NCBI GenBank assembly: GCA_028711115.1
Contig: JAQTSV010000001.1
Location: 6,032 to 70,031 of the forward strand
DNA: 64,000 nt
Direction of reading: 5' to 3'
From: Candidatus Omnitrophota bacterium
Lineage (GTDB): Bacteria > Omnitrophota > Gorgyraeia > Velamenicoccales > JABMQK01
In this document: one piece after another, positions 3,001 through 58,489 of the stretch
Numbering within the stretch: the first letter of the stretch is position 1
Layout of the letters: the number at the start of each line of letters is the position of its first letter
Translations under genes and position numbers: made by a program
The notes under the pieces: model-generated
Seen by the model: the letters and a program-made list of their open reading frames with translations, nothing else
What the model was told of the DNA's origin: nothing
Database searches by the model: none

Positions 3001-6000
3001 AAACTGCTGCATCTTATCCTGCGATTGCTCTAATACGCCGATGCTTCTTAATGCCGCGACAAGATATTCTCTTTCGACTTCCGGCTGCTTAATTCTCTCT
3101 ATAAGATATTCGGACTGCATATTCCTTAGCTGGGTTCTTGCCTGGGAAATTTCTGCGTTTAATTTATTTACTTTATCTAGTTTTTGTTTTAACGCTTCGC
3201 TATCCTGCGGATTAACAACAGTCTTGTTTAATTGCGTTAATTCTTTCTCCTTATCGCTAATAAACTTCTTCTTTTCTGCTATTTGCCTGCTGGCATCATC
3301 TGCTGGCTCGTTTTGCTGTGGCTCTGAAACATCCAATGTTTCTCTGTTGCTGCGGTTATTATTAACCATCTCTCTAACTTTGCTTTCTAAGTTGCTAACA
3401 TCGGTGTTTGCTTTATTTTTATCTGCTAGATAGCCTTTTAATTTAACCTCCAGCTCATGAATTCTCTGTTTTTCTTCCGGCGTAACATCAACTTTTGTTA
3501 TTAATCTTATGTATTCTTCTGTCTCCGGAATATGATTTATGGCAGCTTTATTTATTTCTATTCTTGCCTTGGCAATAACTATCTTCTCATTAACCAATTC
3601 TAATAATTCCTTGATTAATTCCTTTATTTCTGCGGATGTAGGTTCTGCTGAGGTGGCGGTATAGTTATGTCTCTTTCTAAAAGCATCAAGTCCTTTTTTC
3701 ATATCTTTGTCTTGCGGCTTAGCGTCGCCTAATGCGCGCAACATAGTCAGTATTTCACCTACGTTCAGCTGCGGATTGGTTTCATTCTGCAATTTCTCTA
3801 ACCGCGCTTTTTCTTTATCCAATTCTTTAGAAATACGTTCTTGTTCTGCAATGCCTAACTCTGCCTTCAGGCGTTCAATCTGCATTTCCATATCCAATAT
3901 CTTTGCATCAGCTTTACCAGATGTGGTTTCTTCTGCCTGCGCAGACTGAAGATCAAATTCAATAACCTTCTTCATTCTCTTAATCCTTGCTTCCTCTAAA
4001 GTGATACCTTCGTGCTGCGCCGACTGGATGTCTCTTATATCGCCTTCGCCGCCAAGCAAACTATAAATCCCCTGGCTGAATATTCCCTGGCTGGCAACTG
4101 GATTCATGCCTGTGGCCAATCCGTATAATCCTTCAAAAGAACCGATAACTTCATTACCAATTCCTATGATAGAACCTTGTACGGCTGTATCGGCAGCTCC
4201 CTGCAGCGTATTCTTGCCGCCTTCGAATGCGTGGGCGATGTTACTTATGGGCTCAAAAAATTGGCCGACTTCAGGAATTTCCACAAGATAATCTGCGCTG
4301 TTTGTAATGGCGCTGATTTCCGTTCCGATTATATACATTCCGCCGAAGCTCCTCCATGACTGGCCGGCAAAGTGCAAATAAATCTTTAAATAAATATTTT
4401 TTGTGAATAATTTTATCTTCGCATAATTTCCTAAAATAAATGCCAAGCCTGCAATTACAGGTATGGCTAAAACTATGATTCCCAACACAGGAGAAATAAC
4501 CCAGGCCTTTGCAGCTAATAATGGCAGGGCGAATGTGGCTAAATTGGCGAATGTAATAATCATCGGCTTTGTCTTATATGCAAACCTTGCCTTTCTTTGC
4601 GCGTCCTTTGATTTCATCTTAATTACAATCGGCTCATCTTTATTTTCATTTAATTCATTGAGTTCCTCTAATAATTTAGTGCGTATAGCCTTAATTAATG
4701 CCGGCTTAAACCTGGACTTGATTAAACCCAGCTCGTATAAATTCTTTATTGTATCCAATACTTTCTGTTTTTCTGCCGCGTCTTTATATTCCCTGGTAAG
4801 GGCTATGTAGATATCCGTTAGCTTCATACTGAAGCCGCCTACCATTTGTTTGGCCATAGCATATTTGGCAGGAATGCCGATTACCATATAACCTAAAACA
4901 ATAAGCAGCACTCTTAAAATTTGCCCTTGTGTATGCTGTATGCCTAAATTGCTTAATAAAGTTAAATTCTCCTGGCTTAAATGCATCCAGGCAATCAAAG
5001 ATTCTTTTACGTAAAATCCTAATACGCTGCCTAATATACCGGCAAACCCTACGCCTATTGCCGCGATTAAGATTCTTGCAAAATACAATCCGATGTAACC
5101 CGATAAGACTGGGTTATTGATGATAAATTTTTCTCTTCCTGCGCCCCTTATCTTAACTCCTGACTTTACGAGCTGATCATAAGCCTCCGCTTCGTCTTTT
5201 ATCTTTTGATAAAGTGTTGCATTGAGAAGATTATGGTCGTATGGCAACGCGGCTTTTGCCTTGGTGTATTCTACGGCGATGTCGCCTGCCTTGGTATTTG
5301 CCTCCTGCCTGTCCATAAAGAAGTTCCAGAATACTGAAACTAGATATCCGCCGAACACGCTCATAAATAATCCCAGGATTATAGCTGTAAATGTTATGTT
5401 TATCGCAGGAACAGTCACTATCACGAAGGCAGATATGGCCATCCAGATGTAGGTCTCGTAGGAAGCCAAAACTTTCCTAGGTTTAAAATAATCAATTATA
5501 GAATGCCTGTTCTGATTTCTTAAATCTCTGCGTATTCTGCCAAAAGCCCAGTATTCGGCAGGCGTGAAATTGGGTTTAAAGCCTAATCTTTTCTTAAGAC
5601 TATTGGTTATATAGGCGACTTTACCTTTTGCCAGCCTTCTTACGCTCACTACATTGTGGAATAATGACCAGGCAATAATTAAACCAACAAAAGAGTATAT
5701 TGCTGTATATACAAGTGGCACTAATAATGGCGAAATTCCCCAGCCCGCAACATTCAAAGCAGGAATCATTGTAAATAAATATGTAGAAATAATGACGAGT
5801 GTCAATAAGAATGCCACAACATAGCCGGAAGATAATATTGTGCCGAGTTTGGTATTCTTTATGGAAGGAGCGTTCTTTATGGCGGGAATCTTGGAAACTA
5901 ACTTTAATATCAATGTAGCTAAAGTCGAAATTGCAGCCAAGAGTATTGCCGGATGTTCACTGAATAACGCAATTAACAATTCCATAACCAAAGCTGGGGT

Positions 6001-9000
6001 TAAATTACTAGTAAGAGGAAGTAATACTAAAATAATTACGAAAAAGATTCGTAGCGCTAATTTATGAGAAGATAAAACTGAAGATTTAGGCGTAGTCTTT
6101 GTTGAATCTGTTGTATTGTCATCGGATATCGGGCTGCTGGAAATTCCTGTCTTTTCGGCTGACAGGCCTGCCTCCTTCACCGCCCTTGTCTGACTGACAT
6201 TGCCAATGCCGGCAATTTGGCTCAAATCTTGTTTAGTCATATTAAACGCAGCAATCGGGCTGGAGGATTCTCTCTCAATGCGTTCTTCTTGCATAACTAA
6301 TCTTACCGTGTGTATCTGGCCTAATTCTAAATTTGCTTTAGCCAATCTGTCATTTATTCCCAATAGATCAAATGAAACCTCAATGACTTGAGCAATAATT
6401 CCTGTGGCGATATCGAAAACAAATGTTTCATGTCTTTTTAATAATTTTAATTCTCTCGCCCTTTCTCGCATAATCATACCAGCCGTGATCACGTTAGGAT
6501 TCAATTCAAGGCTAAACTTTCTGATTACTTCTTCAATATGCCTTAATTCTAACAGACCGCTTAAAGGAGTTGTCCAGCCTCTTACTTTATCATTCAATGG
6601 CAAGCCTTTTGACTGCTCAAAAGCTTCTCCGCACTTTGCAATGAGGGCACGGTCACTTAATTCTCCACCGATCAATTCAGCAAGTGCTGTTTCAAATGCT
6701 GGTATTGGTGAACCATCCGGCATCCTTACAATAGTATCGCTATAGTCAGCAACAGCAAGTGCCCTGGGGCTCAAATGCTTTGTTTGAGGATGTGCGTTTT
6801 GGAGTTGGCTGCGGACTAACTGTTCGCTAAATGCATCTCCTTCTACATTAACTAAGAGCTGATTTTCAAACCATTTCACCATCCTGTTATCGCCTAAAAC
6901 CCATGTTCCAGGCGCATATGCTTTTGACCCTACAGTAGCAAGAGGATTATTCGTTTCTATTATTTCTCCTGTGAATATAAACCGTTTTTGTATCGGGCTA
7001 GAGGAAATTCCAACCCCATCCAGAGACCCAGCAACAGCGGGGGTGGTGCTGTTTCTCTGCCAAGCCTCTGGATTGGTTTGTATACCTATCTCTACTTCCT
7101 TCCTGCCACGGTAGGATGAGATAGGTGACGAAGAAATTCTATATCCGGATAATATAGCTTTAAACACAAGCCACACAATCGCCTTGTTGACATCATCATA
7201 TTCATTTATACGATTAAGCCATTGTATTGCCTCATCTGATGTTTTTGTAAATACCACTATTGTTTGCGGAGTATCTTTAGAATCTAAACTACGGATAATT
7301 TCATTGTTTACAAAATCATAAACTTCAAAATTTAAATTGCGGTATCTTTGTAATTCTTCGATATAAGCGCGGCGGCTGGCTTCTCTTAATGTGTAGAATT
7401 CATTGGTGGCTTCCATAGGAACAAATATTATGGTGCGTCTTTTTGCCTGGAACATATCGGACACTATCTGCCTGAATGTCTGATAGTGGCATACGCCAAA
7501 AGCGCCGCCTGTGACAACGAAAATATCGCCGGCTTCTAACATTGTTACCTGGGCCTGGCCTTCCACTAAACCGGCCTGTGAATGATAGGCAAATGTTCCT
7601 TTTCTTGTTTCATCTTGGCGCGGATAATTTGTGCCTGCGCTTATGGAATTAAGGGCAATCCTTCTGTCAATTATTTCGCTGTAATATAACGGGTCTATAC
7701 CTTCAGCCATTTTCTCATGAATCTTTGATTCGGTATTGCCGACATGGGTAATTGCGAGCGTGGATTCAGGATTTGATCCAGCCACCAAGAACTCAATAAT
7801 GCGGTTTATGAACTGCGCATTCATACTTACTAAATCCAGAGGGCTGCTGGAGGGGGTATTGCCAACAGCCAATTTCTCTGGATAAGTTTGCTCCTCTGCA
7901 CCTGCCACGGTAGGCGAGGAGCTGGTTTGTTCATTATTTATAATTCTATATCTGATCGGGGACGAAGCCCGGGATGTTCTTTTTAATTCACGTTGCAATG
8001 GTTGATCTTTCTTGCTTAAATATGCCAATCTATTCATTATCTCCATAGCTGATATTCGACCTTGAGTCACTACTTCTAAATTGGCAACTTCCTCGTCTAC
8101 TCCGGTAAGCGCTGCGCTAAGCAGGAATCCGTTTACAAAATTTAGTTTTCTCTGCAAGTTCCACCTTCTCCATAATGTATCAGCTGCCTCTATTACCTGT
8201 TTCTTCATATTTGATGGGCTGGAGCTGGTTCTTGTCTCTTTCACATCCATAGTGCTGCTGGAGGGGGTATTGCCAGCAGCACTTGGATTTTTATATGTTG
8301 CTCTGAAAGCACCTGCCACGGTAGGCCTCAAAGCAACCTGTGAATAAAATCTATCTGTTAAATTATTATTATTGATAATTACGGGTGAGGATATTGACGT
8401 GTCTATATTTGTCTGACGACCTGGCTCCTGTTTCAGGATGGGCGATGAGCCAGCCGCCATAATCGGAGTTGGCGCCAATCCTGTGCGAAGTGTCTGGGCT
8501 AAAGAAGCAATTACAGGGCTGTGATTTATGTTAAACTGCTCATCTATTGTCAAAACTCTTTCGCTTAAAGACGTAACGGAATTTACAGTAATCGGCGAAG
8601 AAGATCTTCCTCTGCCTGTGAATCCCGTGCTTCTGGCATTTCTTCTATTATTCCTGCCAGACATTTTGATAACAACTTTGGATGCTACTCTAATAATTCC
8701 TAAAACAACTTTCACTATACCTATAATAGAAACCAGCGTGATAACTGCCAAGTGCGTTACTGCACCTTGCCTTTTCTCAAAGTTTCCATGTATTGCCCTT
8801 TGCACAAATTTTGTTTCTCCCAAAACTTTTGCCGTTAACTTTGCCCTGAAAATTTCCAAGCGGCTCAAGCCTGAATATAGTCTGTATCTTATATGACCGT
8901 CGCCAGGGATTTTTAACCTTATTTCCCGCTTGCGCGCATAAAGCCTGTAAGCAGAATACAATCCTAAGATAACAAGTGCTCCCGCTGCAAAGAACTCAGC

Positions 9001-12000
9001 TATCCTCTCGCCTATTGTCATCATCATTCTATGCCTTGCCTGACGTTCTGCCTGTTGTATTGTTTCCTGCGATTGTGTATATTCACTATGAGACTTTTCT
9101 ATTTCTCTTTTTACCAATTCAGAAATTAGTTCGCCGTTTAACAAATATCCTCTTTCTTGTAAATGCGCGGTGAGTTCATTTAATTTTTCATTCCTGTAAG
9201 CATATTGTTCCGGATTATTTCTTATATTCAATGCCTCCTGGGCAAGCAGCCTGTATGTGTCTGGTGAAACATTCTGATCAAAGATAGGTAATACCCAATC
9301 GCTTGCACCATAACCATAGAGGTATTTCTCGACATAACCTTCGCTTAGGAAGAAAGCCAATAAAGAAGCCAGTTTATAGTCAAAAACCTGGCTTTCACGC
9401 GGATTGTCGTGTTCAATAAGCCTGAAATAAACTCTCTTTCTGCCTACGATTTCTAATCTGGAATTACGTTCCGTTAAAAGCTCATAACGCAACTTATCTT
9501 GTTCTGCATTGACAATACCTTTATATAATGCCAGAAACTCCAGACGTTTCCTCATATAGTTAATAGGCTCGGCGAGCCTCTTTCCTTTTTCAGTCTTGAT
9601 ATTCTTGGTCCATTCTATGTTTCCGTTGAATCTCGCAATCGCCCTGTCCACATTTGTGGTGCCGCAGTTGTACGCGGCGATAGTGGCCAAAGCCACGTCA
9701 AATCCATTGCCGTGCAGGCTGGCATAATCCAAAGTCTTGTCGGTTAACTGAGAACCAACCAAGACTTTCCTGCTATACCTGTCCCAGAGATACCACAAAT
9801 AGCTGTAGCCGATTCTCTGGTTATATAATTTATCGGTTTCGATTCTGCCGGTTCTTCTTTCTTGTTTCTTTGCCTTTTTGGTACCGGCAATGTATTCCTG
9901 GAGAGCGGCTTTTTTCTGTTTATTATCCAGTGTATGGTTATTATAAATCATTTCTACAATATCTCTGCCGATATTATCCCTGAATACCTTCATTCTTTGT
10001 ATATCTCTCGGGATCATTGCTATTGCTTCTGCGAAACTGGCCGGGCTAAATCCTGTATTGGGATTGGCCCTTACAAGCCCTTCGGGAATATTCTCCAACA
10101 TCTTTTCTATTGCTGCTTTTTCTTCAGCACCTGCCTTTAACCAAGCCGCAGCCAAGACATAATAGAGATTTACTCCCACAAGATTTTTGTCATCAATTAT
10201 CCTGCTATTTATTCTTCTCATCGCCTTTTGTTTATTGCCCGTATTATTGTACAATTTTATTAAATCTGCGATAACCTGATTACCTATATATCCTCTATCT
10301 GTCTCTTCTTCGCCCGCAAGCGAACCTACCCTTAATAATATGTCAAACAACATATTCACCATATGGTCTACAGCGTAATGCGGTACAACCTGGGTTGTCC
10401 CCAGGGCGCCTCTATAGGAAGTCACGACCAAAATCCTTCCCCATTTATCCAGCTGGAATTGCCTGAAGGCGGATTCGATATAATTCATCGACTCGGCCAA
10501 GTGCATAAATTCTTGTGATGCACCTGTTGCCGCCACAAATCTCTCTAATTCTTTGTATGTCAGGGTCTTGGTCCATTCTTGGATATCAGAAGGAACTGCG
10601 GAGAAGGATATCTTGGATATCTGCCGGTCTAATAATTCGTCCAATTTCTTTGCATCCTGTTCGTGCTCGCCGATTAATAATCTGATGTATAATTTACCTT
10701 CTCTTTCTTCAAAATCGACGAATTCAGCCAAACCATTTTCAGTTAAAACGCTTATTAATGTATCGTAATTTTGGGATCCTATAAATTGTTTCTCATCCGT
10801 AAATCCACGCACCTCTGCGCGCAAATCTGTGGGGTTCTCAAAGAATGTCGGCTGCGATGGCTGAGGCATAGTTGCCTTATGCTCAATTTGCCTACAGCTA
10901 TTCAAAGCCATAGCCAAAACTATAACTAATAATAAACTCCTGACCAACGGTGTCTTTCTAAACACCTCTAACGGCGAGGAAGCAGTCGCGCCTTCAAATC
11001 TTGCGCGATTGTCTCGGATGTATTGTAAAGAAGGTGCGACATACGGATGACTGATTTCTTGTTCCGGCATACGCTTTAACATCTCATCTAATAATTTCAA
11101 ACTAATCTTAATAACATCCAAGCGTTCATTTTCTTTCATCAATAACTCTAAATCCCTAATCATTCCAGCCCTGAAACTATCAAGTTCTTTTCCTTTTGTG
11201 AGCTCCTCAAGATATGACTCTCTGCCAAATGCCTCTAACACAGCCAAGGCAACATCCATTCTTGTTACTGTGAACTCTAATTCTGGGTATTGAGCCTCTA
11301 CTCCGTTGCTGGCTTCTCTACAGCCCTCTCCGGCTCCGATCAAACCAACCAGGAGCGCTGTAATAAAAATATCAAGATTAAATGGCTCGACGTTTCCAAA
11401 ATCAATAATTACTGCCTCATCTGTTGACTCGTTTGTTAATATGTTCATCGGCGTAGGATCTAAAATGAATTCTGACCCTTGCAGTTCTTTTACAATGGAA
11501 GCATAAACCTTAACCGCGTGGTAAAATAGTTTTAACCATCGTTCTTTTCTATCTTTAAGTTCTTCTCCTGCTCGAGGCTGCATTAACTTATCTAATCTGG
11601 GGAACTTTATATAGGCCTCTGTCCACATACCCTCCTGCCCTTTTTCTCTTTCTATAATCAAGGAGGCAGACCTAAGGGCTGTGGGCCGAGATGAAAGTAT
11701 CATATGCCTAAGGACTTCTCTGTTTAAACTTGACCACTTCCAATCCTGCCTTCTTACCACGCTATGTCTTATTGGCTTTACTACAAATTTGTATGTGGTG
11801 ATTTTTCCATTGATAAGAGCATCGACTTCCACCAAGAATACTGTCTTAAAAGCACCTTCATCTAAAAATCTTATCCTGGAACTAACCATTTGTTCCAATG
11901 TTAACCTGACATTATGTTCAATGAAGATAGTCTTTCTGGCCAGGGCATTTTCAGCCATATGTCTCAATATATATCTCCTTGCCCGCATGTAATCTTCTTT

Positions 12001-15000
12001 GTAGGCTTCGAAACTCATTGCATCATTACCATAGAAATTGTTATATCTTTCTCTTAACTCATTTTCTAATATTTCGCCTGATGGTTCACATTCTTCAGTC
12101 CCTGGCCTAATAAATTTAATTCCCAAACCTCTTCGCATTAACTCTCTAATACTAAATCTTTCCGGGAATAAAATATCTAGTTTTTCTTGTATGGCATTTA
12201 AAGCGTCATTGGCACGTTCTACAATTGAATTAGCCTGTTCATTAGTGAGCTTACCTCTCTCTTTAAATAAATTTCTATAATAAACCAATTCGGCAAGCAC
12301 GCCTCTGGCCATAAGGAAATCAGTATTGGTTGTAAATTCCATATCTCCCAATTGTTTAATTAAACCAAGCGTATCTTCACCTGCTAGTAAATTAAAGGAT
12401 ATGCGCCGTCTCAATTCCAATGCAATATCCGCTACTGTTAATTCTCTTATCGGGCTGGAGGCGGAACCGAATATCTGTACTCCTCTATCTAATAAAGTAT
12501 AAGGTAAGGCCATAATTATCTTTGTATCGCTAAGATTTGCTGCAGTTAAAGAAGCGGCAAACGCCTCTAATGTATCTCTTCTTTCTTTAGGTTCGGCCTT
12601 CCAGTTAGCAGCAATAATAGAATTTCTTCCTTGAGTAAGAGTTATCGGCGCAGGACCTATTACTTCAGCGATTTTGGCAATACTGGTAAATGACTCGGCC
12701 TTGAGACTTGCGCCTCCAATTAAGGCACCATCAATATTGGATTGGGATAATAGCTCTTGGGCATTGGTAGGATTAACGCTGCCACCATAGAGTATTTTTA
12801 ATTCTAAAGATAATACTCTGCTGTAGCTCCTTCTTATAAAATTACGGATTGCGTAGCTTATTTCTTCAGCTTGCTGAGGATTTGCTGTCAGACCAGTGTT
12901 TATTGCCCAAATAGGTTCATAGGCAATAGCTGTTAAGTAATTTAAGGCCTCTGGTCTAATGCCCCTTAAATTCTGTTCAAGTTGAGTTAAGACATAATCT
13001 AAATGTCTCCTTTCTTCTCTGACAGCTAGGGGTTCTCCACAGCAGAGTATTATCTCAAGGCCGTCGGGGGTAAGTACGGCCATTAGTTTTTCATTAATTA
13101 ATTTATCTGAATCGCCTTCTTGTATGCGTTCGACAACGGGTTTACCTTCTGGGCTACGTAAGACTGCTTTACCTGTATCATCCTTTTTATAAATAGGTAC
13201 ACCAGCCCTTGTTTCGCTATGACCAAGGAGTGAACCAAAGACACGTATTTCTCTTAAAAGTGCTAGATTTATCTTTCCTGTATGAGCACCCACTTCAAGG
13301 CTAAAGTCCTGAGCATAGATTGTTACCGGGCTGGAGGCGGAATAAATCTGTGTAATCTGCGGTATTAAATCTGCGTAATCTGCGGTTGCAGAGACAAAAA
13401 CACCCCTGACGTTCAGATTGTCCTTGTAATCTGCGAGGGTTCTTATATTATTTTTGGTTACAGGGCTAGAAAATACGAATTCCGAGAGCCTGTTTGAGGT
13501 TGCACTCGGGGACCTTGAGATTCCGTGGCTTTTTAACACAACAGAATTTCTGTCTGACTCTTTTATCGGGCTAGAGCCAGATGTCCGAACCTGATTTTCT
13601 AATCCAGTTAAGCCTTGTCTTAGGGCTTGTGCACTACCAGCCGCCATTACGGGCAGACTCATAATGCTTAACCCTAAAGCCCTTGGCCTTATACCTATAT
13701 TTGCTGCTCTGACGTTAGCTTGCGCTAAACTTATAAGGTATACACCTTGAGCATCCCCAATGCTGACAACTATTAAATTGCCTGCATTTTGGCCTAAGTT
13801 CTTTCCAAGAGAGAACTTAGAAGACCCAACCAAATTATAGCCGTAAACATACCTAGCTGTAGTGGAGTTCTCTAATCCTAGAGCACACTTGTAAGCAGAG
13901 AGACTTACAAGCGGCGAACTCACACCAGGGCTGCGTGCGCCATGATCGTTGCCAAGGTTAGTCCTTGACATACGATCTGGAGTAAGTTCACCTATTTGCC
14001 TTGCAAAAGGATCAGAAAGGGCAATAGGTGAGGAGATACTAAGAACTGCGGGTTGAAGCGCAGGAATATTGCTTATCACAAAACTATTCGTATTCTGTGT
14101 TGGCAAAGGCAATTGCACTGGAGATGATGTGGATATAGGCACAGCAGGAACTCTTGAAACAGGTGTCTGCTGAGATTCTGCTGTATTTTGTATCGGCGAA
14201 ACTGGAGCCAATAAATTATTCTGTATGTCTCTTAAATTTTCCAAGCCGGTAGCCAGCCTATTGGCCAAAGGCGAAGACGCTGGCTTGGTTACTTGTTTTT
14301 CAATTGCCATTTCCGGCATTGGCAGTTTAATTTCAGGAATTCTCCTTGTGCTTGCGCTGCCAACACCCAAAGGAGAACTCATTCTATTAAAGGCATTGCC
14401 TGTGCCTATACCGCCGCCAATACCAACATTGTTTGAGCCAAAACCTCTGCTGCCTGCAGCAAAACCTGTTCCGGCACCAGGCGCACCAGCATTATATCCG
14501 GCTATATTTCTGTTACCTATATTAGTTAAGGTTTGCGACTTAAGCGGCGAAGAAGCTGCATCTTGGAATCCTGCTAAATCGAAGAACAACTTGTTCTCTG
14601 TTGTGACTAAATCAATAGGCTGTTCATCTCTATCAACAGATAACTCCCAATCCAATTTTCTTATTATGCCTTTTAATTCATCAAATGTGCCAATGACATT
14701 CTGTAAATTGTCATTATCTAAACCTCGTCTTCCCCCCGCTAACAAACTTAAATAACCATAAATAGAACCAAATCCACGATTAGCGATATCAACGTTTACC
14801 CAACGACCTCCATAAGTCAAAGCATTCCACAACGGATAGATTTTTTCGTAGTTTGGTAATTCTTGGACAGGTATGAGATTAGTCTGCAGCTGCATATCTT
14901 TTGCTAATTGTACTGCGCCTTTAAAGGACTGTGCGCCTCTCATGCGAGAATGCAGTAAAAGCCCTAAAGGCCGCATTACTTCAATATCATATCTGTTATA

Positions 15001-18000
15001 AATTCTCTTAATCTCTGCGAGTTTGGTTTTATTAAGAGTTTTTAAATCCGTAACCTGCAAAGGCCCGATAATCGTTTCTGTCTTTTCCACAAAAGGCCTG
15101 ATGAATTTATCAACAAATTCCCTCGCCATACCTCTGAGATTTCTGGCTTCTGCTCCGCTTATGGTCTTGGAAAGTTTATAACCTTCCGGCAGCTCTAACG
15201 GCGATGAAACAGCAACCTGTGATATTCGCTGGCTAATCCAATCCAAATCAACATCAATCAACTGATGAGATTTGGCATTCTGGGCTAATTGTATAGAATC
15301 CTGTTGAGCCAACCAGCTATCGAATATACTGATTATGCTGCTTACGTGGTCAAAGGCGCCTATAACATTACTCAAATATTTTTCTGCAAGTTTTGGATTA
15401 CTTTTCATCGTTTGTAAAAATAAAGCAATAAGACCAAAACCCCTGTTCATAATATCTATTGTGTCATATTCCGGCTGTCCGTTGGTTAACGTATTTATAA
15501 CCACCGGCGCGACTCTAGCATACTCTTCAAAGCCTGTGCCTGCTATAGCGCCATACGTCATCTGCATGCGAATTTCATCCAGAGGATCAATTACATTGCG
15601 GCGATAGTTATCGTAAATCTCGGCAATCTTATCTATATCTGGATTAGTGAAATCCATGGAACGTAAAGGTGCAATTACTAATCTGAGAGTCTCTGCTAAA
15701 TAAGGCCTTAATACTCTACCAATAAATTGTTTGGTTAAATATTTGAAATCTACGGCTTGCGGGCCGGTGATAGGAGCTTCTAGCCCAGTGGTAGGATCTT
15801 TTACTCTCTCATAACCCAGAGGCAGTACTGTTGGCAATATTGGAGATGAGGCTGTCAAAGAAGTTGTAGCTGACTGCATTGCAGGCGGCGCGCGGGTTGG
15901 AGTTATGAACATTTGTTTCATTGCACTGACACTCATTTCCTGTATCTTAACTTCTCCGATTTGCGTAAGCGGCGAACTGGCTGCTTCAGGTGCTACCGGC
16001 ACCCAAGCATTCATCGTCACATCTTCTATATTCATTCTTAACTCTTTTACATAATATTTATAAGCTGCTAATGCCCTATGCGAACCATCTAATAAAATTT
16101 GTATATGAGTCCCTGGTAATATATCCATCACTATCCTGTGATTTTTATCTCCTTTTCTTAACAACTCGACATATTCATCAACCAACGCGATTCTTCTGCC
16201 TCTGTCTGCGATACTCTTAAGCATCGGGTTAGCATCAAAAATATCTTTTAAAGACACTGCAACTTGTACCCAGTCATAATTTTTTAACCTATCAAACGTT
16301 CCATCAACACCGAATAAATCCTCGTGCTCTTTTATAATACCGTAAACCTCATCCCAATTCTTTCCTACTGGTGAAGATGCTGCGGGTTGCATAGACATTT
16401 GCTGCAACTGTTGCGCGATTGGTGAAGAAATTTCCGGCTGCCTGTATGTATTTATAACCAATTCGTGTACGGCTTCGCCTGTCTTGGGAGAATTACCAAG
16501 ATAACGCGGTGAATATGTTGCATTGGTTAATTCACTATGCAGCCTTTCAATTGTCTGAATAGTAACTGGGCTGGAGCTGGGGCCAATTATATGTATTTCT
16601 GAAGCAACATTAGCATTAACCAATGCCTGAATATCTGCTGCTCTTACGTCTTGATTAGGCGTAATCGTCAACACTCTGCCGTCGTAGGAAATAACTTTCG
16701 TATTCCTGAGAACTTCTGCAGCCGAATTCATTTGCTCAATCACCGGCGAAGAAGATTCTGGTGCCAACGCGGCTATTCTTTCTTTCGCCTGAATAAGTTT
16801 GCCTGCCGAATAGATATCCAACATCTCTGATAAAGGAACTCTGGCCAGAGCCAATGCTTCACCTCTACCCTGCCATGCCGCTGTCTGCGTTGATATCGCA
16901 GATATCGGGCTGGATGAAATATTAAATTGTGGCTGCGATAATTCCGGAGCAGCTGACGCAGCTATCGGAGAAGAGACAACATTAGCCGTCTGTTGATTTA
17001 TAGGCGAAGAAACGCCCAAGAAACTATTTAGATGAGGCGTCATTGTGGTATCGACTTTATAATGAGTACCGCGTATAGCATCGACCAACTGCTGAGACGC
17101 CATTGTCTTAACGCTATCGAAATTGACTCCTGTTAAACCTTGTAAGCGCTCATCAAGATCTTTTGTAGAATTTATTTTTGCGTTTACCATAAACTGAGCT
17201 GCCAAGTAGGTATTCAAAATATTTCTTTCGTCCTGCGAAAAACCGCCTGATAAACCGCTTGTCGTTGGGCTGGTGCTTAAAATAACCTCTAAAATATCGT
17301 GCGCGAAATTAAACTGGCTGGTTCTTGCGTCACGCATTGACTCTGGGCTAACTATTAATCTATATCCTCTGCTTGAATTCCTAGGATCAATTGGCTCAAT
17401 CAATGTACTAACACCTCTCTTAATATCTGCTGGGCTGGCAATTAATATTTCTTTTATGATATCCTCTTTGGCAAAGCGTGAAATTTCAACACCTTTATCT
17501 TTGGCAAACTTCGCAACCTGCGGCCAGATGCCTTTTATATTCTTGGTTATCTTTTTAATCAGAGTGGGCTGTTGTTTGCTAATAGCTGCCCTGATAAGAT
17601 CATTGTCATGATCGGATGCCGGTTCATCCGTATAATCAATCCTGCCGCCGTTTGTCCATTGCACAAAGTCGGCTATTTCTGAGATAAGGTCTTCTGGGGA
17701 CATGGCATTAATTTCCTGAGCAAGGCTTAAGAAAGTATCGCTTTCGTTGTTGAGCGTGCGCTCTCCGAGGTTCTGTATACGAAGACTACCTGGGTCAAAC
17801 TTTATCCTCTGCGGATGAGCCACTGCAAATTTAGTTGTTTCACGTAAACTGAAATACTGTGTGAGCATTTCATTTATGTTCCACTCTGAACGTTTAAGAC
17901 TAAGAAGCGCAAGAGGCGTATCCAGAGAGCTGGATATTGCACTTAACAAAGCTTTGTATTCTGCTTCTGTTACGCTCCCGCTTAATTTTGAAGTATCGCT

Positions 18001-32998: not shown

Positions 32999-33889
32999 TT
33001 ACCTTAATCCTCCCAAGCCTCCGGTAGTGACAAATTGCAATAATACCGGTCCTCCCACAATTACGGCCACCACAGGCAGAATAAAGAATATCAAAGGTAT
33101 GAGCATCTTCATGGGTGCCTGCAGGGCTATCCTTTCCGCGCGTCTGAAAAACCTCTCGCGTACATCGTCTGAAAGGACGCTCAATGCCTGGGCAATAGGA
33201 ATACCCATTCTGTCGGCCTGAATGAGCGTGCGGCAAAATGCTGTGACATCAGGAAGGCTTAAGCGTTTTGCCATATCCGCAAGTGCGTCCCTGCGAGACT
33301 TTCCTACTTTTATTTCGTGTAATACCAAACTAAGCTCCTCTGTAAATGCATTAGCAAAAGATTTATCTACAATCCATCTGGCTGCGGCAATGAAATCCAG
33401 GCCTGCATCCACGCACAACGATAATAAATCCACCGTATCCGGAAGCGTCCGGATTATTTTTGACCTTCTATCCTGTACTTTAAAATTCAGCCAAATGTCC
33501 GGTGCGATAAAACCCACTATAGGCAGTATTATTAATGGCGCCACATCGCCGCTTCTTATGAACAGAAAAGTCAAAAACAAAAAGAAGAATGCCAATAATT
33601 CTTTTATGGCCAGGAAGTGCTCCGGCATCATAAATAACCTGGCTGCAAACATTTTCTCTTCCATTTTATTTCTCTTAAAAAATTTATTAACCAGCATATA
33701 GTTAACCGGCACGAAGAAATCCAGCATCGTGCCAAAGAAAGATTTTTTATTCTTGGTGCTGTATGCGTCCACCTTCAGTCTCCGTTGAATTGCCGTCTTT
33801 AATTCATAGGAGGTAAGCATTACAATCAAAACATTTGCCAGCAGTACGATTATCGCTATAAATAGAATTATCTGTGCAATTATCTCCAT
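32999..33889 (-). CDS. tadC: Tad pilus assembly inner-membrane platform protein TadC (T2SS-F family)
   Basis: 296-aa ORF. LPDTVDLLSLCVDAGLDF..LHEIKVGKSRRDALADMAKRL..FCRTLIQADRMGIPIAQAL..FILPVVAVIVGGPVLL is a typical TadC/GspF-type domain with flanking TM helices. Confidence 0.85.
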   Translation of the reverse strand: MEIIAQIILFIAIIVLLANVLIVMLTSYELKTAIQRRLKVDAYSTKNKKSFFGTMLDFFVPVNYMLVNKFFKRNKMEEKMFAARLFMMPEHFLAIKELLAFFFLFLTFLFIRSGDVAPLIILPIVGFIAPDIWLNFKVQDRRSKIIRTLPDTVDLLSLCVDAGLDFIAAARWIVDKSFANAFTEELSLVLHEIKVGKSRRDALADMAKRLSLPDVTAFCRTLIQADRMGIPIAQALSVLSDDVRERFFRRAERIALQAPMKMLIPLIFFILPVVAVIVGGPVLLQFVTTGGLGGLR

Positions 33890-33897
33890 ATCCTCTC

Positions 33898-34782
33898 CTA
33901 TAAATTCACCCTGCCGAACATCCTGATTAAAAATACGCCTACGATTTCCGAAATCACCGCGTACAGCAAAAGCCCCCTGCCCATAGGATTCGACAGCATA
34001 ATATCAAAGTAGTGCGGGTTAAAAGAATAAACCATTATCGTAAACACAATGGGCAAAAGTGACATAACCACGCCCTGAATCTTTCCCTGCATGCTCAGTG
34101 TCTTGACATTATCCGAGAGTTTAAGTTTTGCCCTGATAGTATTAATCAGGGTGCCGAACAATTGCGTAATATCGCCGCCGGTTTCTCTGGCCACCAGTAT
34201 CGCAGTGGTAAGTAAATTCAATTCTTCCGAAGGCATACGTTTGTTTAATCTGTCAAAAGATTCTTCCAAAGACATACCCATTTTATTCTCTCTTAAGATA
34301 ATGCCGAACTCCTGGCTGATGGGCGCAGGCAATTCCTCGACAAGCGCTTCAATCGCCTGCAGCAAGCTCAATCCTCCCTTAAGGCAGCTGGAAAGTATCA
34401 TCAGCCCGTCGCTAATCTGGGCATGAAATTTTTGCTTCCGGCCGACTATCATTCTCTTAAAAACAATACTAGGGATAAGAAAACCGATGGCCAGACCCAG
34501 CAATGCGCCGATGACATAGCTACCGAACACTCTCCCGAAAAATACGGCAGATACCAATGTGCAAATTGTGGGAGAAAGGGTATTAAACAGAACCAGTTTT
34601 TTGGCATCGATAAACAGCATCATCTCTTTTAAATTCATCTTCTGCTCTTCAATTTTGCGTGAGCGCCAACCAGAAAAAACCTTGAGCGCCACAGATGTAA
34701 ATTGCACGCCCTGGCTGGCAAGAACATAAATCGCACCTGCGATCAAGATGAAAACTACAAATTTTAAAATATCTGATGCCAT
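33898..34782 (-). CDS. tadB: Tad pilus assembly inner-membrane platform protein TadB (T2SS-F family)
   Basis: 294-aa ORF. LSSCLKGGLSLLQAIEALVEELPAPISQEFGIILRENKMGMSLEESFDRLNKRMPSEELNLLTTAILVARETGGDI, with TM helices at both ends. Confidence 0.85.
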   Translation of the reverse strand: MASDILKFVVFILIAGAIYVLASQGVQFTSVALKVFSGWRSRKIEEQKMNLKEMMLFIDAKKLVLFNTLSPTICTLVSAVFFGRVFGSYVIGALLGLAIGFLIPSIVFKRMIVGRKQKFHAQISDGLMILSSCLKGGLSLLQAIEALVEELPAPISQEFGIILRENKMGMSLEESFDRLNKRMPSEELNLLTTAILVARETGGDITQLFGTLINTIRAKLKLSDNVKTLSMQGKIQGVVMSLLPIVFTIMVYSFNPHYFDIMLSNPMGRGLLLYAVISEIVGVFLIRMFGRVNL

Positions 34783-53560: not shown

Positions 53561-53791
53561 TTATACCTCACTTAACACGCCTATTTTACCACCTTCTGAA
53601 AAAATCTCAACATAATACAGGTCCTCCATAGGCGGCATTTCATATTGCAGCTGAATAAAAACGATTATGGCCACGTTTTGATCATAGCCGTTAAACTTTT
53701 CAGATACTCTAGGAGAAATATATTGCTGAGGCGGTAAAAATAAAAGCCTGGAGCGCTTATCAGGGCTTGAAGATTTCGCGGGGTAGCTCAA
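53561..53791 (-). CDS. Possible small ORF between cpaF and phoB (doubtful)
   Basis: 76-aa ORF whose stop abuts the phoB ATG and whose 5' end overlaps the cpaF 3' end by 32 nt. No recognisable motif. Confidence 0.2.
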   Translation of the reverse strand: MSYPAKSSSPDKRSRLLFLPPQQYISPRVSEKFNGYDQNVAIIVFIQLQYEMPPMEDLYYVEIFSEGGKIGVLSEV

Positions 53792-55925
53792 CGCCTCTGG
53801 TGACTATATCATCATAAAAGGTAGGAATTATTCCTGTGGCCTGAAAATGCCCGATTACTTTATTGTTATTATTCCTGTCAATACCGGTCTGCTTAAAAAC
53901 AAAGAGGTCTTTTAGGTTAATATGCGTGTCATCCAGCATACCTACGACTTCGCTTATCTGGATAACCTTGCGCGTGCCGTCAGGTAAACGTGCGGTATGC
54001 ACAATCAAATCCACTGCCGAGGCAATCATCTCGCGGATTGCCCTCAAAGGAAGCTCAACCCCGCTCATTAAAATCATGGAATCCAGCCGGGTTAACACAT
54101 CCTGGGTAGAATTGGCATGCACAGTGGTCATAGAACCGTCGTGGCCTGTATTCATTGCCTGCAACATATCCAAGACTTCGCCGCCGCGGCACTCGCCTAC
54201 GATAATTCTGTCGGGCCGCATCCTCAGGGTATTTCTGAATAAATCCCTGACCGTAATGGCGCCTTTACCTTCTATGTTGTGCGGACGGGACTCCAGTCTT
54301 ATCCAGTGCTCCTGTGTAAGCCTGAGTTCTGCGGCGTCTTCAATGGTAATAATACGCTCTGTGCTGGGCACAAACTCCGAAAGAATATTTAAAAATGTGG
54401 TTTTACCTGAACCGGTTCCTCCGGAGACAATCAGGTTTATCCTGGATATAACACAGGCCTTCAGGAACTCCGCCATATTACCATCGAGACTTCCGAAGCG
54501 GCTAATCAAGTCCGCAATGGTATAGTGCTCCCGGGAGAATTTTCTGATAGTAAGCACCGGGCCTGATAGGGCCAAAGGAGGAATAATAGCGTTGACACGC
54601 GAACCGTCAGGAAGCCGGGAATCCACCATGGGCACAGATTCATCCAAACGCCTTCCCAAAGGAGCAATAATCCTTTCAATAATAATACGCACCTGGTCAT
54701 TAGAGATGAATTTCTTTGTGGTCATTTCTAACCTGCCGTGCCGCTCTATATATACCTGGTCCTTGCCATTAACCATTATGTCCGTTATATCGTTATCCTT
54801 TAGGAAATCTTCCAATGGGCCTAAGGCCAGGGCCTCGTCGCAAATTTCTTTTACAATGCGCTCCCTTACTTCAAAAGATGATAAAAACGCACCTGTTTCT
54901 TCTGATAATAAATTAGTCACAATCTTGTCTGCCTTCTCCCTTAATTCCTTGGCCTTCTGTGAATTGGTGATAATCTCCAGATCTAAGCGCTTGAGATCCA
55001 GCTCTTCGATTAATCTCTGATGGATATGCCGTTTTAACTTGATAACCTCGTCTTCCTCGGTAAGTACATCCATCTTTTTTTCCAATTCCGTAAGGCCCAT
55101 AGTATCCCAGAATGTCCCGGCGCCGGGCATCTTCTCTTTGGATTGTGCCCGCATCTGTTTTAACTCCTGGTGCTCAATATAAATGTCATTTCTCTTGATT
55201 AATACCTGGGCTAATTTTTTTATGGACTGGCTTACTCTGCAGGCAGGGCTGTCAATTACCACAGGAATGCCTCTGTTTAGGGCCAGGCCCACTATCTTTC
55301 CTTCGCTGGGTATGTGCGCCAGGACTTCATAAGGCAGAGCCAGACTTATCTCCTGCATAGAGAGCGCGGACTTACTTTCCGAACGGTTCAAGACCAGCTT
55401 GACCATATTCAAAGGAAAGTGCAACGACTGCAATACATCCAGTCCCCAGCGTGTCTCATAGACAGAGATAATATCCGGAGTGACCACAAACAAAATAAGG
55501 TTGGAACAGTTAAAGGCAGCGATTAGGCTGTCTGTAAAGGCCTTGCCGCCATCCAGGATAATAAAATCGTATTGCTCTATAAGCATGTTCATCACCATAT
55601 CCACGCGCTCAATTATAATGTGCGATGCCTGCTTGGGGCGGGTAACTGCCGGCAGGAAATCTATGCCTGCGGAAGGAACCAAAGTGATATAATTCTTAAT
55701 ATTGCCTAATTCCTTAATCTTGTCTATAATCGCGGAGATGTCGTACATAGAATACTGCGCTGTGACATCTATCATGCGCGACATATCCTGCGCGGCCTGC
55801 AAATCAAAATCCACAAGAATGACTTTTTTGCCTTCCTGTGCCAAAGACACGGCCAGGTTTACAGCCATAAAAGTCTTTCCTACGCCGCCCTTGGTGCTAA
55901 ACAGAGAAATCAGGTTTGCCTTCAT
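53760..55925 (-). CDS. cpaF: Fusion protein: N-terminal ParA/MinD-type (CpaE/TadZ-like) domain plus C-terminal CpaF/TadA secretion ATPase
   Basis: The N-terminus has the deviant Walker A LFSTKGGVGKTFMAVNLA..VILVDFDLQ. The C-terminus has VDSRLPDGSRVNAIIPPLA..SGGTGSGKTTFLN..IITIEDAAEL..RMRPDRIIVGECRGGE..AMNTGHDGSMTTVHAN. Confidence 0.88.
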   Translation of the reverse strand: MKANLISLFSTKGGVGKTFMAVNLAVSLAQEGKKVILVDFDLQAAQDMSRMIDVTAQYSMYDISAIIDKIKELGNIKNYITLVPSAGIDFLPAVTRPKQASHIIIERVDMVMNMLIEQYDFIILDGGKAFTDSLIAAFNCSNLILFVVTPDIISVYETRWGLDVLQSLHFPLNMVKLVLNRSESKSALSMQEISLALPYEVLAHIPSEGKIVGLALNRGIPVVIDSPACRVSQSIKKLAQVLIKRNDIYIEHQELKQMRAQSKEKMPGAGTFWDTMGLTELEKKMDVLTEEDEVIKLKRHIHQRLIEELDLKRLDLEIITNSQKAKELREKADKIVTNLLSEETGAFLSSFEVRERIVKEICDEALALGPLEDFLKDNDITDIMVNGKDQVYIERHGRLEMTTKKFISNDQVRIIIERIIAPLGRRLDESVPMVDSRLPDGSRVNAIIPPLALSGPVLTIRKFSREHYTIADLISRFGSLDGNMAEFLKACVISRINLIVSGGTGSGKTTFLNILSEFVPSTERIITIEDAAELRLTQEHWIRLESRPHNIEGKGAITVRDLFRNTLRMRPDRIIVGECRGGEVLDMLQAMNTGHDGSMTTVHANSTQDVLTRLDSMILMSGVELPLRAIREMIASAVDLIVHTARLPDGTRKVIQISEVVGMLDDTHINLKDLFVFKQTGIDRNNNNKVIGHFQATGIIPTFYDDIVTRGVELPREIFKP

Positions 55926-55968
55926 CTACAACCTCGCTAAGATATGTTTTTAACTACAGTTATCCGGT

Positions 55969-57624: not shown

Positions 57625-57625
57625 T

Positions 57626-58489
57626 CTATTTTTTGAGTTCTATCTGTTCTTTTTTTGCGCCTTTATAAATCTCTAAAGTAGGGGCTGGCGGAGGCGGTGG
57701 CGCCACAGGCTGCTCCACGACCTGCGGTTCTTCCTTTTTCTTTTCTTGCTGGGGCTGTTGCATAAGTTGCTGACCTAAGTTACTGATGATATACTGCCAA
57801 AGGGCATTGGCCTCAATAGGTGGAACAGATTCGATGGCTGTATCCAGGGGCTGCCTTAAAATAAATCTTAACGCCCCTTGTGTCATAGCATAAGACAGAA
57901 TTGCTGATTCCTGTGGTGTCAGCGCCAAAATAAACACCAAGCTTCCGGAACTATCTCTGTTAACCCCCATTACCAGAATTTTCTGAAACAAGGTAACGCT
58001 GACATTTTCCGTGACAGCTTTGCCGTCGACATTCTGCGTATAAGGAAACCCGCCGATAATATCAATATAATCTCCTGCCTTGACTTCGCCGGCCACAGCC
58101 ATAAGCGGTTCTATTTTAATTGTAAAAGCCCTTTTGCCGGTCGGTAACCGCACAGCCAGGCTGTCTTCGGTTTTACGAATAGTAGTAAGCATAGTAGACA
58201 AAACCTGCCCGTCTTTATGTATGTCTGTCACGGCTATTTTACCAAAAGCCGCATTGGGATTCTGCAGAACGTCTGGCTGCATATACTGGACGGGGAACTT
58301 GACCTGTCTGAGCATATTCGGCTGGATAGTGGCGCCTTTGGGGATATCCTGGCCTGCCACTACGATGGTCGTCTCTTGAAGTTGAATTTTGTATTTCTGT
58401 TTTTCGCGATTTAAATAAGTATTAATCATTACCACTGCCAAAAGAGACATGACCACAGCGATAATGATGCTCAATAACCTTTTATTCAT
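57626..58489 (-). CDS. cpaB: Flp pilus assembly protein CpaB/RcpC
   Basis: An N-terminal TM helix, a SAF-like TTIVVAGQDIPKGATIQPNMLRQVKFP, then RAFTIKIEPLMAVAGEVKAGDYIDIIG and a Pro-rich tail. 1-nt gap to cpaC. Confidence 0.8.
   Translation of the reverse strand: MNKRLLSIIIAVVMSLLAVVMINTYLNREKQKYKIQLQETTIVVAGQDIPKGATIQPNMLRQVKFPVQYMQPDVLQNPNAAFGKIAVTDIHKDGQVLSTMLTTIRKTEDSLAVRLPTGKRAFTIKIEPLMAVAGEVKAGDYIDIIGGFPYTQNVDGKAVTENVSVTLFQKILVMGVNRDSSGSLVFILALTPQESAILSYAMTQGALRFILRQPLDTAIESVPPIEANALWQYIISNLGQQLMQQPQQEKKKEEPQVVEQPVAPPPPPAPTLEIYKGAKKEQIELKK

Follow-up and report, generated by a model that had tools for sequence, protein, structure and literature searches.

A recurrent Ser-Ser-Pro-[Ile/Leu/Val] motif marks module junctions in a giant Omnitrophota protein and may serve as a processing site

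The question raised by this locus is what a four-residue peptide motif does that recurs some thirty times within one giant bacterial protein. The protein is encoded in a stretch of 64,000 nt from a Candidatus Omnitrophota bacterium (assembly GCA_028711115.1, contig JAQTSV010000001.1, positions 6,032 to 70,031 of the forward strand), which was analysed as a whole and is referred to as the window. Its minus-strand open reading frame (ORF) starts with an ATG at window position 32991 and is still open at window base 1, comprising 10,998 stop-free codons and, thus, at least 10,998 amino acids (aa). Residues are counted from this ATG; the left end of the ORF lies beyond the window, and the C-terminal part of the protein is hence outside it. 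Giant genes of Omnitrophota, ranging from 10,000 to >100,000 codons, are a recent discovery, described in two papers (10.1101/2023.11.21.568195 and 10.64898/2026.06.07.730766) that cover 'Archaeovorins', C39-bearing and multi-enzyme classes; the 2026 catalogue contains 5,761 Omnitrophota proteins of ≥10 k aa. Cleavage of these proteins was suspected, with the cleavage points stated to be unknown (West-Roberts et al. 2023, 10.1101/2023.11.21.568195), and according to the main paper on giant proteins this lack of knowledge blocked even structure prediction. Here we show that strong purifying selection maintains [S/A/V/I/G]-S-S-P-[I/L/V(/M)] as a short linear peptide motif, and that within a giant multi-enzyme Omnitrophota protein anchored in the membrane it marks where cassette-like modules of the central section join.

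The tripeptide Ser-Ser-Pro (SSP) was found 32 times in the translated ORF, where it is followed by I (15), L (8) or V (7) in 30 copies; the two non-canonical copies are SSPS and SSPT. SSP is the commonest tripeptide of the whole protein and SSPI the commonest tetrapeptide. All 32 copies are confined, in one frame, to a section of about 3.6 k aa (aa 5329-8953; window 6127-17010, minus strand), with no SSP[ILV] in the preceding 5,328 aa or in the following 2,045 aa of the ORF, and none in the other minus-strand frames or the neighbouring genes. This count bears out an earlier note on the same DNA, made from the letters alone, in which at least ~30 recurring copies over ~11 kb had been reported. 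Its four exact examples were verified on the minus strand (SSSPI at 6253-6267, ASSPI at 12448-12462, ASSPV at 13324-13338 and SSSPI at 16903-16917), and the 28 positions it had given as approximate all proved to be SSP tripeptides, two of which are the non-canonical copies (7909-7920, SSPT; 8212-8223, SSPS).

A comparison of the pattern count with composition-matched shuffles, as had been proposed, confirmed the excess: the expected number of SSP[ILV] copies was 0.42 upon shuffling the whole protein, 0.25 upon shuffling the region and 0.38-0.74 upon local shuffling in blocks of 10-50 aa, and the highest count among 2000 shuffles was 6, versus 30 observed. Chance or composition as the source of the motif is ruled out by these global and local shuffles (≤0.74 expected). 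Alignment of the 30 copies with their flanks yielded the logo [S9 A9 V4 I3 G2 M T F]-S-S-P-[I/L/V], that is, [small/aliphatic]-S-S-P-[ILV], with the flanks otherwise unconserved. The residue at position -1 is never charged in the 30 copies, and the flanks are mildly enriched in disorder-promoting residues (z ~2). The Ser-Ser pair is strict, as evident from 0 occurrences of TSP, STP, SAP or ASP followed by I, L, V or M in 10,998 residues.

Homologues were sought with aa 5250-6449/6500 as query in a word-indexed search over 5.8 billion proteins and in a full HMMER search over 1.84 billion representatives. Three metagenomic fragments, P0001, P0002 and P0003, were the sole matches of both protein searches; a 2,155-aa query gave no homologue, and two genome-contig and two metagenome-contig scans gave none. 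P0002 and P0003 come from metagenome-assembled genomes (MAGs) of Omnitrophota, and the 13.1-kb stretch around P0002 (GCA_028717585.1) is designated L002. Conservation in homologous giant genes, which the earlier note had suggested as a check, was found in all three relatives, with 8, 8 and 22 copies: in P0001 and P0003, 8/8 SSP each are followed by I, L, V or M, and in L002, 22 of 23 are, where 0.07-0.17 copies per protein fragment would be expected by chance. Natural gene splits at motifs in GCA_028717585.1, where three genes are called, were considered and rejected, the 'intergenic' gaps being two 100-N runs and, hence, scaffolding artefacts. These gaps lie at L002 3100-3199 and 7251-7350; the homologous giant ORF is annotated as three genes for that reason only, and public gene calls can therefore mislead on gene boundaries.

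The relatives also allowed the peptide to be distinguished from the DNA encoding it. Among 17 orthologous motif pairs from the three relatives, 18 of the 51 Ser/Ser/Pro codons differ, all synonymously, including several TCN<->AGY switches that need two nucleotide changes each, and the sequence around the orthologous motifs is only 34-49% identical. Because codon changes within the motif are synonymous only while the surroundings diverge, we conclude that the peptide is under purifying selection. Within the giant gene, the 30 copies have 20 different 9-nt encodings with TCN and AGY serine codons mixed, and the 13-mer ATCGGGCTGGAGG has 2 exact occurrences, with 7 of 30 copies within ≤2 mismatches of it; near-identical DNA, which had been described as frequent, is a feature of this minority only. 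No tandem-repeat structure was found in the motif region except for one 23-nt duplication unrelated to the motif. Taken together, the number of encodings, the synonymous-only divergence, the lack of a motif tandem repeat and the low share of copies close to the 13-mer rule out a DNA-level repeat, whether tandem or dispersed. In the low-complexity linkers at aa 6206-6321, motif positions turn over relative to the relatives (SSPL/SSAL, SSPI/SSYI, VSPI/SSPL) at kept density. The copies in window coordinates, with their counterparts in the relatives, are as follows.

6127-17010, minus: central motif-bearing section, aa 5329-8953, holding all 30 canonical copies
16999-17010, minus: SSPI aa 5329, V at -1; conserved in P0001 (aa 601)
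16963-16974, minus: SSPI aa 5341; conserved in P0001 (614)
16903-16914, minus: SSPI aa 5361; P0001 639 counterpart is SSPL
16741-16752, minus: SSPV aa 5415; P0001 676 counterpart is SSPL
16564-16575, minus: SSPV aa 5474; P0001 699 counterpart
16417-16428, minus: SSPI aa 5523; P0001 741 counterpart
16366-16377, minus: SSPV aa 5540; P0001 764 counterpart; opens a 133-aa module
15967-15978, minus: SSPL aa 5673; P0002 132 counterpart; P0002 homology starts here, upstream modules differ
15838-15849, minus: SSPI aa 5716; N-border of duplicated module copy 1; equals P0002 174 and P0003 494
15196-15207, minus: SSPL aa 5930; border of duplicated copies 1/2; equals P0002 387 and P0003 695
14542-14553, minus: SSPL aa 6148; C-border of duplicated copy 2; equals P0002 591
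14368-14379, minus: SSPL aa 6206; in Gly-rich low-complexity linker
14266-14277, minus: SSPL aa 6240; in linker; aligned P0002 position is SSAL (turnover)
14116-14127, minus: SSPV aa 6290; in Pro-rich linker
14023-14034, minus: SSPI aa 6321; in linker; aligned P0002 position is SSYI (turnover)
13909-13920, minus: SSPL aa 6359; equals P0002 968, inside conserved 'RSPGVSSPLVS'
13564-13575, minus: SSPI aa 6474
13459-13470, minus: SSPV aa 6509; upstream of the predicted permuted TIM unit, in a possibly decayed TIM N-terminal segment
13324-13335, minus: SSPV aa 6554; N-border of the predicted permuted TIM unit; alpha2-beta3 loop position of TIM
12448-12459, minus: SSPI aa 6846; C-border of the TIM unit
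10969-10980, minus: SSPL aa 7339; directly before an internal signal-like segment
8590-8601, minus: SSPI aa 8132; 21 aa past the hydrophobic segment 8077-8105 and its Arg-rich flank
8437-8448, minus: SSPI aa 8183
8380-8391, minus: SSPV aa 8202; equals L002c 80; opens a repeated linker cassette
8212-8223, minus: SSPS aa 8258, non-canonical
7954-7965, minus: SSPI aa 8344; opens the second copy of the linker cassette
7909-7920, minus: SSPT aa 8359, non-canonical; then VAG (part of the P[TA]VAG mini-motif)
7837-7848, minus: SSPL aa 8383; N-border of the best-conserved module; equals L002c 147
7120-7131, minus: SSPI aa 8622; C-border of the best-conserved module ('GYRISSSPIS', identical in L002c 389)
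6991-7002, minus: SSPI aa 8665; N-border of a 246-aa module
6253-6264, minus: SSPI aa 8911; C-border of the 246-aa module
6127-6138, minus: SSPI aa 8953; last copy, 20 aa before the multi-transmembrane block

That the motif brackets a triosephosphate isomerase (TIM) unit, a unit named kinase-like and a pair of duplicated modules, as stated in the earlier note, was confirmed by locating their borders at motifs. These and other units of the section are:

15208-15837 and 14554-15195, minus: the two duplicated-module copies, conserved in P0002 (49%) and P0003 (34%)
12460-13323, minus: predicted permuted TIM unit, aa 6558-6845; beta3-alpha8 at aa 6559-6776, then beta1-alpha2 at aa 6790-6843 ('AANWK')
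10981-12447, minus: 'kinase-like' unit, aa 6850-7338 (489 aa), motif-bounded; by eye GAF...VVK, LDPTPMN, IIDFG
7132-7836, minus: best-conserved module, aa 8387-8621, 65-68% identical to L002
8311-8325, 7900-7914 and 7027-7041, minus: P[TA]VAG mini-motif, 10-30 residues after SSP[ILV]; L002 copy at ~9257-9271

The Pfam match to TIM covers aa 6546-6776 (E 9e-53), and a hidden Markov model (HMM) of the TIM N-terminus, built from the first ~58 residues of 96 ordinary TIMs, gave a single match in the giant protein, at aa 6790-6843 (E 2.9e-7). This segment ('RNSIIAANWK...') directly follows the TIM C-terminus, in agreement with the Pfam and PDB alignments. Of the catalytic residues, His and Glu are in the first part (GHSETR, YEPIWAINTG), and Asn and Lys are found only in the downstream 'AANWK'. 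Further, 'FGSA-SSPI' (6846) is homologous to 'IYSA-SSPV' (6554), placing both bounding motifs in the same loop of the ancestral TIM fold. The span from SSPV 6554 to SSPI 6846 is accordingly predicted to be exactly one complete, circularly permuted TIM barrel. We know of no natural permuted TIM; TIM normally works as a dimer. An AlphaFold2 (AF2) model of the unit, made with 120 TIM homologues, was confident for beta3-alpha8, with a predicted local distance difference test (pLDDT) score of 80-98; for the last 70 residues it was 33-63 at no alignment depth, leaving the closure of the barrel by beta1-alpha2 undecidable from the model.

Upstream of the TIM unit, in aa 6509-6553, only aa 6545-6557 still match the TIM profile. 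The segment may be a decayed N-terminal TIM segment, which would fit a duplication-and-trimming route to the permutation. The 23-nt tandem duplication mentioned above (95% match, window 13343-13386, in minus-strand coding sequence, aa ~6536-6551) lies just upstream of SSPV 6554 and presents the same DNA read in two frames (TADYADLI / PQITQIY). Since 23 cannot be divided by three, there must be a compensating indel. Without the duplication, the upstream frame would stop ~20 codons later, at the start of the TIM unit.

The duplicated 215-aa modules stand in tandem (aa 5721-5955 and 5932-6166, ~29% identity), each starting and ending at a motif, and have no family or structure match. The best-conserved module is bounded in both genomes by SSPL and 'GYRISSSPIS'; its single-sequence AF2 model (pLDDT 39) was too poor to use. 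In the unit aa 6850-7338, kinase-like motifs were seen by eye in window 11380-11877, minus strand (aa ~7040-7205: LDEGAFKTV, KFVVKP, ILDPTPMNIL, VIIDFGN). The label 'kinase-like' given to it earlier derives from such motifs and found no Pfam, NCBIfam or PDB sequence match; the unit may be a kinase fold that has diverged very far. None of the modules other than TIM gave a match when searched by sequence against the PDB.

Differences between the relatives were then compared with the motif positions. P0002 holds a different module upstream of its motif 132 (5673 here), homology beginning at that motif, and carries an extra ~155 aa that begin ~17 aa after its motif 591 (6148 here). P0003 carries two other modules after its motif 695, where homology ends within ~25 aa. 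L002 is devoid of the TIM, 'kinase-like' and SLT-like units, and contains HEAT-containing units between its motifs instead. On these alignments, the putative module-swap breakpoints between relatives are at or near motifs. In the C-terminal part of the motif section, ~240-aa modules alternate with ~40-aa spacers that have a motif at each end. The linkers share a further mini-motif, P[TA]VAG, which is present in 3 copies here and 1 in L002, versus 0.02 expected; given its shared position after SSP[ILV], the ~40-aa spacers resemble a repeated cassette flanked by SSP motifs on both sides.

Several motifs are followed by segments resembling export signals, one of which is:

10891-10968, minus: lipoprotein-signal-like segment, aa 7343-7368, EVFRKTPLVRSLLLVIVLAMALNSCR, with basic n-region, h-region and lipobox-like LNSC

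This segment, deep inside the ORF, has the pattern RK..R, then LLLVIVLAMAL, then NSC. SSPL 7339 is followed by EVFRKTPLVRSLLLVIVLAMALNSC, and the next ~790 aa are free of any motif and contain a weak SLT match (E 0.038). In L002, one SSPL is followed by DITRRLFFKTLFIVASILVFDRLGFAQA, by eye like a twin-arginine (Tat) signal with an AQA site, and another by SRKTSLTLKR plus a 27-residue hydrophobic segment; a similar signal-like segment comes after P0003 863 and after 8953 of the present protein. For 5 of 9 first hydrophobic segments in motif zones, a motif was found ≤25 aa upstream with a basic n-region between, where ~1.7 would be expected (binomial P ~0.016 in a small sample, n=9). The five motifs concerned are 7339 and 8953 here, L002b 8 and 1227, and P0003 863, and the signal-like segments begin 1-23 aa past them. 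The placement of motifs upstream of signals is suggestive only. If these segments insert with their N-terminus inside, the motif-bearing linkers upstream of them would face the cytoplasm.

In summary, the 'functional linker' of the earlier note is supported in part, as non-random, selected module punctuation with disorder-leaning flanks. We favour, only modestly and with a probability of about 35%, SSP[ILV] as a proteolytic processing site of a bacterial polyprotein. The same short consensus bounds the TIM unit, the duplicated modules and the conserved module, and among the readings considered processing is favoured as the only one that would explain module-end motifs, permuted TIM termini, double-ended spacers, cassette exchange and export-signal-like sequences together. 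One and the same factor would read every motif copy, and an endopeptidase would cleave there; in the simplest case, the bond cut would be the one behind the aliphatic residue, with P4-P1 being S-S-P-[ILV]. Serine peptidases of the elastase-like and subtilisin-like types have classic substrates of this pattern (Ala-Ala-Pro-Val/Leu, AAPV/AAPL), with small residues at P4 and P3, Pro at P2 and an aliphatic P1, and the MARTX cysteine protease domain selects Leu at P1. The permuted TIM barrel and other self-contained units would be released by such cuts, the ~40-aa spacers with a motif at each end would be discarded, and export-signal-like segments would come to lie at new N-termini, upon which the units bearing them could cross the membrane separately.

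Two familiar cleavage sites do not fit the motif. The double-glycine leader site of C39 peptidases is not matched, the logo being without Gly-Gly and with G at -1 in 2 of 30 copies. The -3/-1 rule of signal peptidase I would be suited by the register [SAVIG]-S-S|P; this register puts Pro at +1, which blocks signal peptidase I, so that a site for this enzyme is not given.

A number of results weigh against proteolytic processing. No protease of matching specificity was detected with Pfam and NCBIfam, the protein containing only C39 and M23 peptidases and the neighbouring genes no peptidase. C39 cleaves behind a Gly-Gly pair, and M23 acts as an endopeptidase on peptidoglycan; the resident peptidases that the earlier note had considered as cutters are, thus, of the wrong specificity, and both are located in other parts of the chain. 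In low-complexity linkers, several motif copies follow one another at distances of 12-50 aa and their positions turn over from one relative to the next, and such clustered turnover is more typical of modification or multivalent docking than of polyproteins with one cut per linker. Strict Ser-Ser, never Ala or Thr, is unusual for subsites that need merely small residues. AF2 gave no test of accessibility at the pLDDT values obtained (39 for one module, 33-63 for the C-terminal quarter of the TIM unit). The Tat-like and lipobox-like segments were read as such by eye and have no Pfam or NCBIfam HMM match, and internal signal-like segments can serve as signal anchors without an upstream cut. The charge flanks of the hydrophobic segments are balanced, so single-chain topology speaks neither for nor against cleavage.

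Peptidase-like sequences in the relatives were considered as well. In P0003, aa 340-400 (L003 ~1081-1264), just before the first SSP motif, have by eye a peptidase look ('VIIFGAHS...IVLIGCSTG'), and His and Cys of this module are 42 residues apart, as in clan CD. In P0002, aa 20-45 (L002 ~75-150), upstream of the first SSP motif, are JAB/MPN-like by eye ('GVLHLHP...PTVED'). Both peptidase readings were rejected, as apart from a weak DUF4347 match (E 0.09) neither Pfam nor PDB gave a match. A peptidase M24 beside the motif zone is present in P0001 and not detectable in the window.

More tentatively still, Omnitrophota giant genes may in part be operons fused into one ORF, giving a true bacterial polyprotein, with SSP[ILV] as a junction code for a dedicated protease that would release dozens of enzymes, some of them exported by newly exposed Sec, Tat or lipoprotein signals, and with cassettes flanked by this code freely swapped between lineages.

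The rival that survives best, though we consider it rather unlikely, is a modification sequon, in which one Ser would be phosphorylated by a Ser-specific proline-directed kinase (for instance the aa 6850-7338 unit) or O-glycosylated, regulating or protecting the linkers. Strict Ser-Ser without Thr or Ala suggests that the hydroxyl or the exact side chain matters; all motif copies have Ser-Pro and none Thr-Pro. The copies cluster in mildly disorder-prone, low-complexity linkers, and their positional turnover at kept density is typical of phospho- or glyco-site clusters. A module with the motifs GAF..VVK, LDPTPMN and IIDFG, seen by eye, lies in the middle of the region and would be in line with a kinase; however, this unit is without a family match in Pfam, NCBIfam or PDB and absent from the recovered L002 stretch, which still holds 22 motifs. 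Likewise, glycosyltransferase domains are reported to be common in Omnitrophota giant proteins, but none was found in this one, and the linkers before signals with the N-terminus inside would be cytoplasmic, contrary to periplasmic O-oligosaccharyltransferases. Nor was the Bacteroidota O-glycosylation sequon D-(S/T)-(A/I/L/V/M/T) fitted, the motif having no Asp and the residue preceding each Ser being S, A, V, I, G, M, T or F. A modification would also leave the motifs at module ends, at swap breakpoints and before signal-like segments unexplained.

Docking, which we regard as unlikely, would have each copy bind one partner domain (a chaperone, a targeting or secretion factor, or a scaffold) at module borders without cut or modification. 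Four strict core residues between uninformative flanks are what one typically sees in short linear motifs that bind as an extended strand, multivalency and linker turnover fit, and copies occur immediately before export-signal-like segments; moreover, SecA-like domains are reported in this giant-protein class. Yet no candidate binding domain was identified in the present protein, and docking leaves unexplained why it would be needed in only this section of 3.6 k aa.

Distinctly less probable is structural punctuation, whereby Ser-Ser-Pro would break a helix or strand and N-cap the next element, the aliphatic residue starting it, for folding insulation without any partner. Helices preferentially start with Ser as N-cap and Pro at N1; helix-like sequence comes after many copies (SSPIAQQLQQM, SSPLDLVSMNAQFINRIIEF, SSPIRELTVADIALELRRR), and the AF2 models show the motif as coil with a helix (low confidence) or a strand directly behind it. 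Caps, however, are degenerate (S/T/D/N, then P/E/...), yet S-S-P is invariant in the >60 copies of the four sequences, where no T, D or N variant occurs and all changes are synonymous, and copies also occur inside long low-complexity stretches with nothing to cap. Lastly, the absence of any peptide function, the motif being a DNA repeat or recombination scar or a by-product of composition or chance, is effectively refuted by the 20 encodings, the shuffles and the synonymous-only divergence of orthologues amid 34-49% identical surroundings without a tandem DNA repeat, even if 7 of 30 copies share ATCGGGCTGGAGG at ≤2 mismatches and the motif uses the codons CCG (Pro) and TCG/AGC (second Ser) more often than the gene does overall.

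As for the remainder of the giant ORF, Pfam matches were obtained for Peptidase_C39 near the N-terminus (aa 186-275, E 8.7e-7), PG_binding_1 at ~aa 1740 and ~aa 10410, and Peptidase_M23 at ~aa 10507-10605 (E 3.7e-31); the weak SLT match (lytic transglycosylase) lies in the 790-aa stretch after aa 7368, and the domain search found no HEAT or glycosyltransferase (GT) domain in the ORF. A hydrophobicity scan indicated an N-terminal signal or anchor, a weak transmembrane (TM) candidate at aa 4201-4220, a signal-anchor-like segment at aa 7348-7368, further hydrophobic segments at aa 7998-8015 and aa 8077-8105, and a multi-TM block of ~10 TM helices at aa 8972-9525. Cysteine is strongly depleted, with 11 Cys in 10,998 residues (0.1%); among these, aa 132 is the predicted C39 nucleophile, and the best-conserved module has a conserved one at aa 8502.

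A distance of 5 nt separates the start of the giant gene from a tadC-like gene upstream of it, two tadB/tadC-like genes being located at window 32999-34782. Tad-pilus genes are also found at window 53760-58489 (cpaB/rcpC-like, a secretin carrying a TonB_C domain, and a CpaE-CpaF fusion ATPase). The giant gene belongs to this gene set and stands last in the Tad-pilus operon; a pst phosphate transporter, phoU, phoBR and a porin gene interrupt the set. The neighbouring CpaF-like protein is identical to NCBI proteins from Candidatus Omnitrophota MAGs, and an exact look-up of a 901-aa neighbouring protein gave no record.

The motif provides the first concrete candidate sites for the cleavage, modification or docking of such giant bacterial proteins, and makes the question of whether they are cut or intact directly testable. 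It provides exact peptides to seek in metaproteomes, as semi-specific termini or as +80 or sugar mass shifts, and a handle for finding the cognate enzyme by phylogenetic profiling. As a four-residue code, it also offers a rational division of giant proteins into units for structure and function prediction. If cutting were true, cells would have their own equivalent of the polyproteins expressed by viruses, and bacteria a novel means of stoichiometric co-expression and cassette exchange.

The closest known systems resemble the motif in some respects and differ in others. With proline-directed Ser/Thr phosphorylation clusters and Ser-preferring PglL-type O-glycosylation of Ser/Ala/Pro-rich linkers it shares Ser next to Pro, flexible linkers, clustered copies and turnover. 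To our knowledge, these systems tolerate Thr and/or Ala near the acceptor and have no fixed aliphatic residue after Pro, whereas the present motif is strict with an aliphatic residue after Pro, and no matching kinase or glycosyltransferase family was detected. Viral polyproteins, cut for instance at Q|G by 3C and at LQ|S/A/G by Mpro, likewise display one short consensus at every junction of otherwise unrelated units in a single translation product; there, the protease is part of the polyprotein and each junction has one site, whereas here the protease was not found and spacers are double-ended.

Among bacterial surface proteins, the P97/P102 adhesin families of Mycoplasma hyopneumoniae are cut at S/T-X-F|X-D/E, and LapG cuts the giant adhesin LapA at T-A-A-G. 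These are large proteins cut at a short motif in flexible regions, as proposed here, but the motifs are others, cutting takes place at the cell surface or in the periplasm, and LapA has one site versus thirty in the present protein. In Vibrio MARTX toxins, an internal cysteine protease domain (peptidase C80) cleaves the inter-effector linkers and releases the modules. Common to both are a very large bacterial multi-module protein, strain-variable cassettes and unstructured linkers with a minimal site, having an aliphatic P1 (Leu) followed by a small residue. Different are the lack of a detectable C80 domain, the longer and stricter motif, whose copies are often paired or clustered, and the host, a free-living or epibiotic Omnitrophota rather than a toxin producer acting in the eukaryotic cytosol, with cleavage predicted only. 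Membership in the MARTX, adhesin/LapA or viral families is not claimed, because the defining protease was not found and the motif differs.

A further comparison is with the giant proteins of Omnitrophota themselves. The terms 'SSP', 'linker' and 'polyprotein' are absent from the text of both papers on them and 'motif' appears once, in a reference title; the junction motif, the permuted TIM and the cassette borders found here are without description in both. Judged by its domains, the architecture (C39, PG-binding, weak SLT-like, TIM, many TM segments, few relatives) matches that of the published giant proteins. Shared with them are the phylum, an ORF of ≥10,000 aa, an N-terminal C39 domain, cell-wall-binding and lytic domains, a glycolytic enzyme domain and membrane anchoring.

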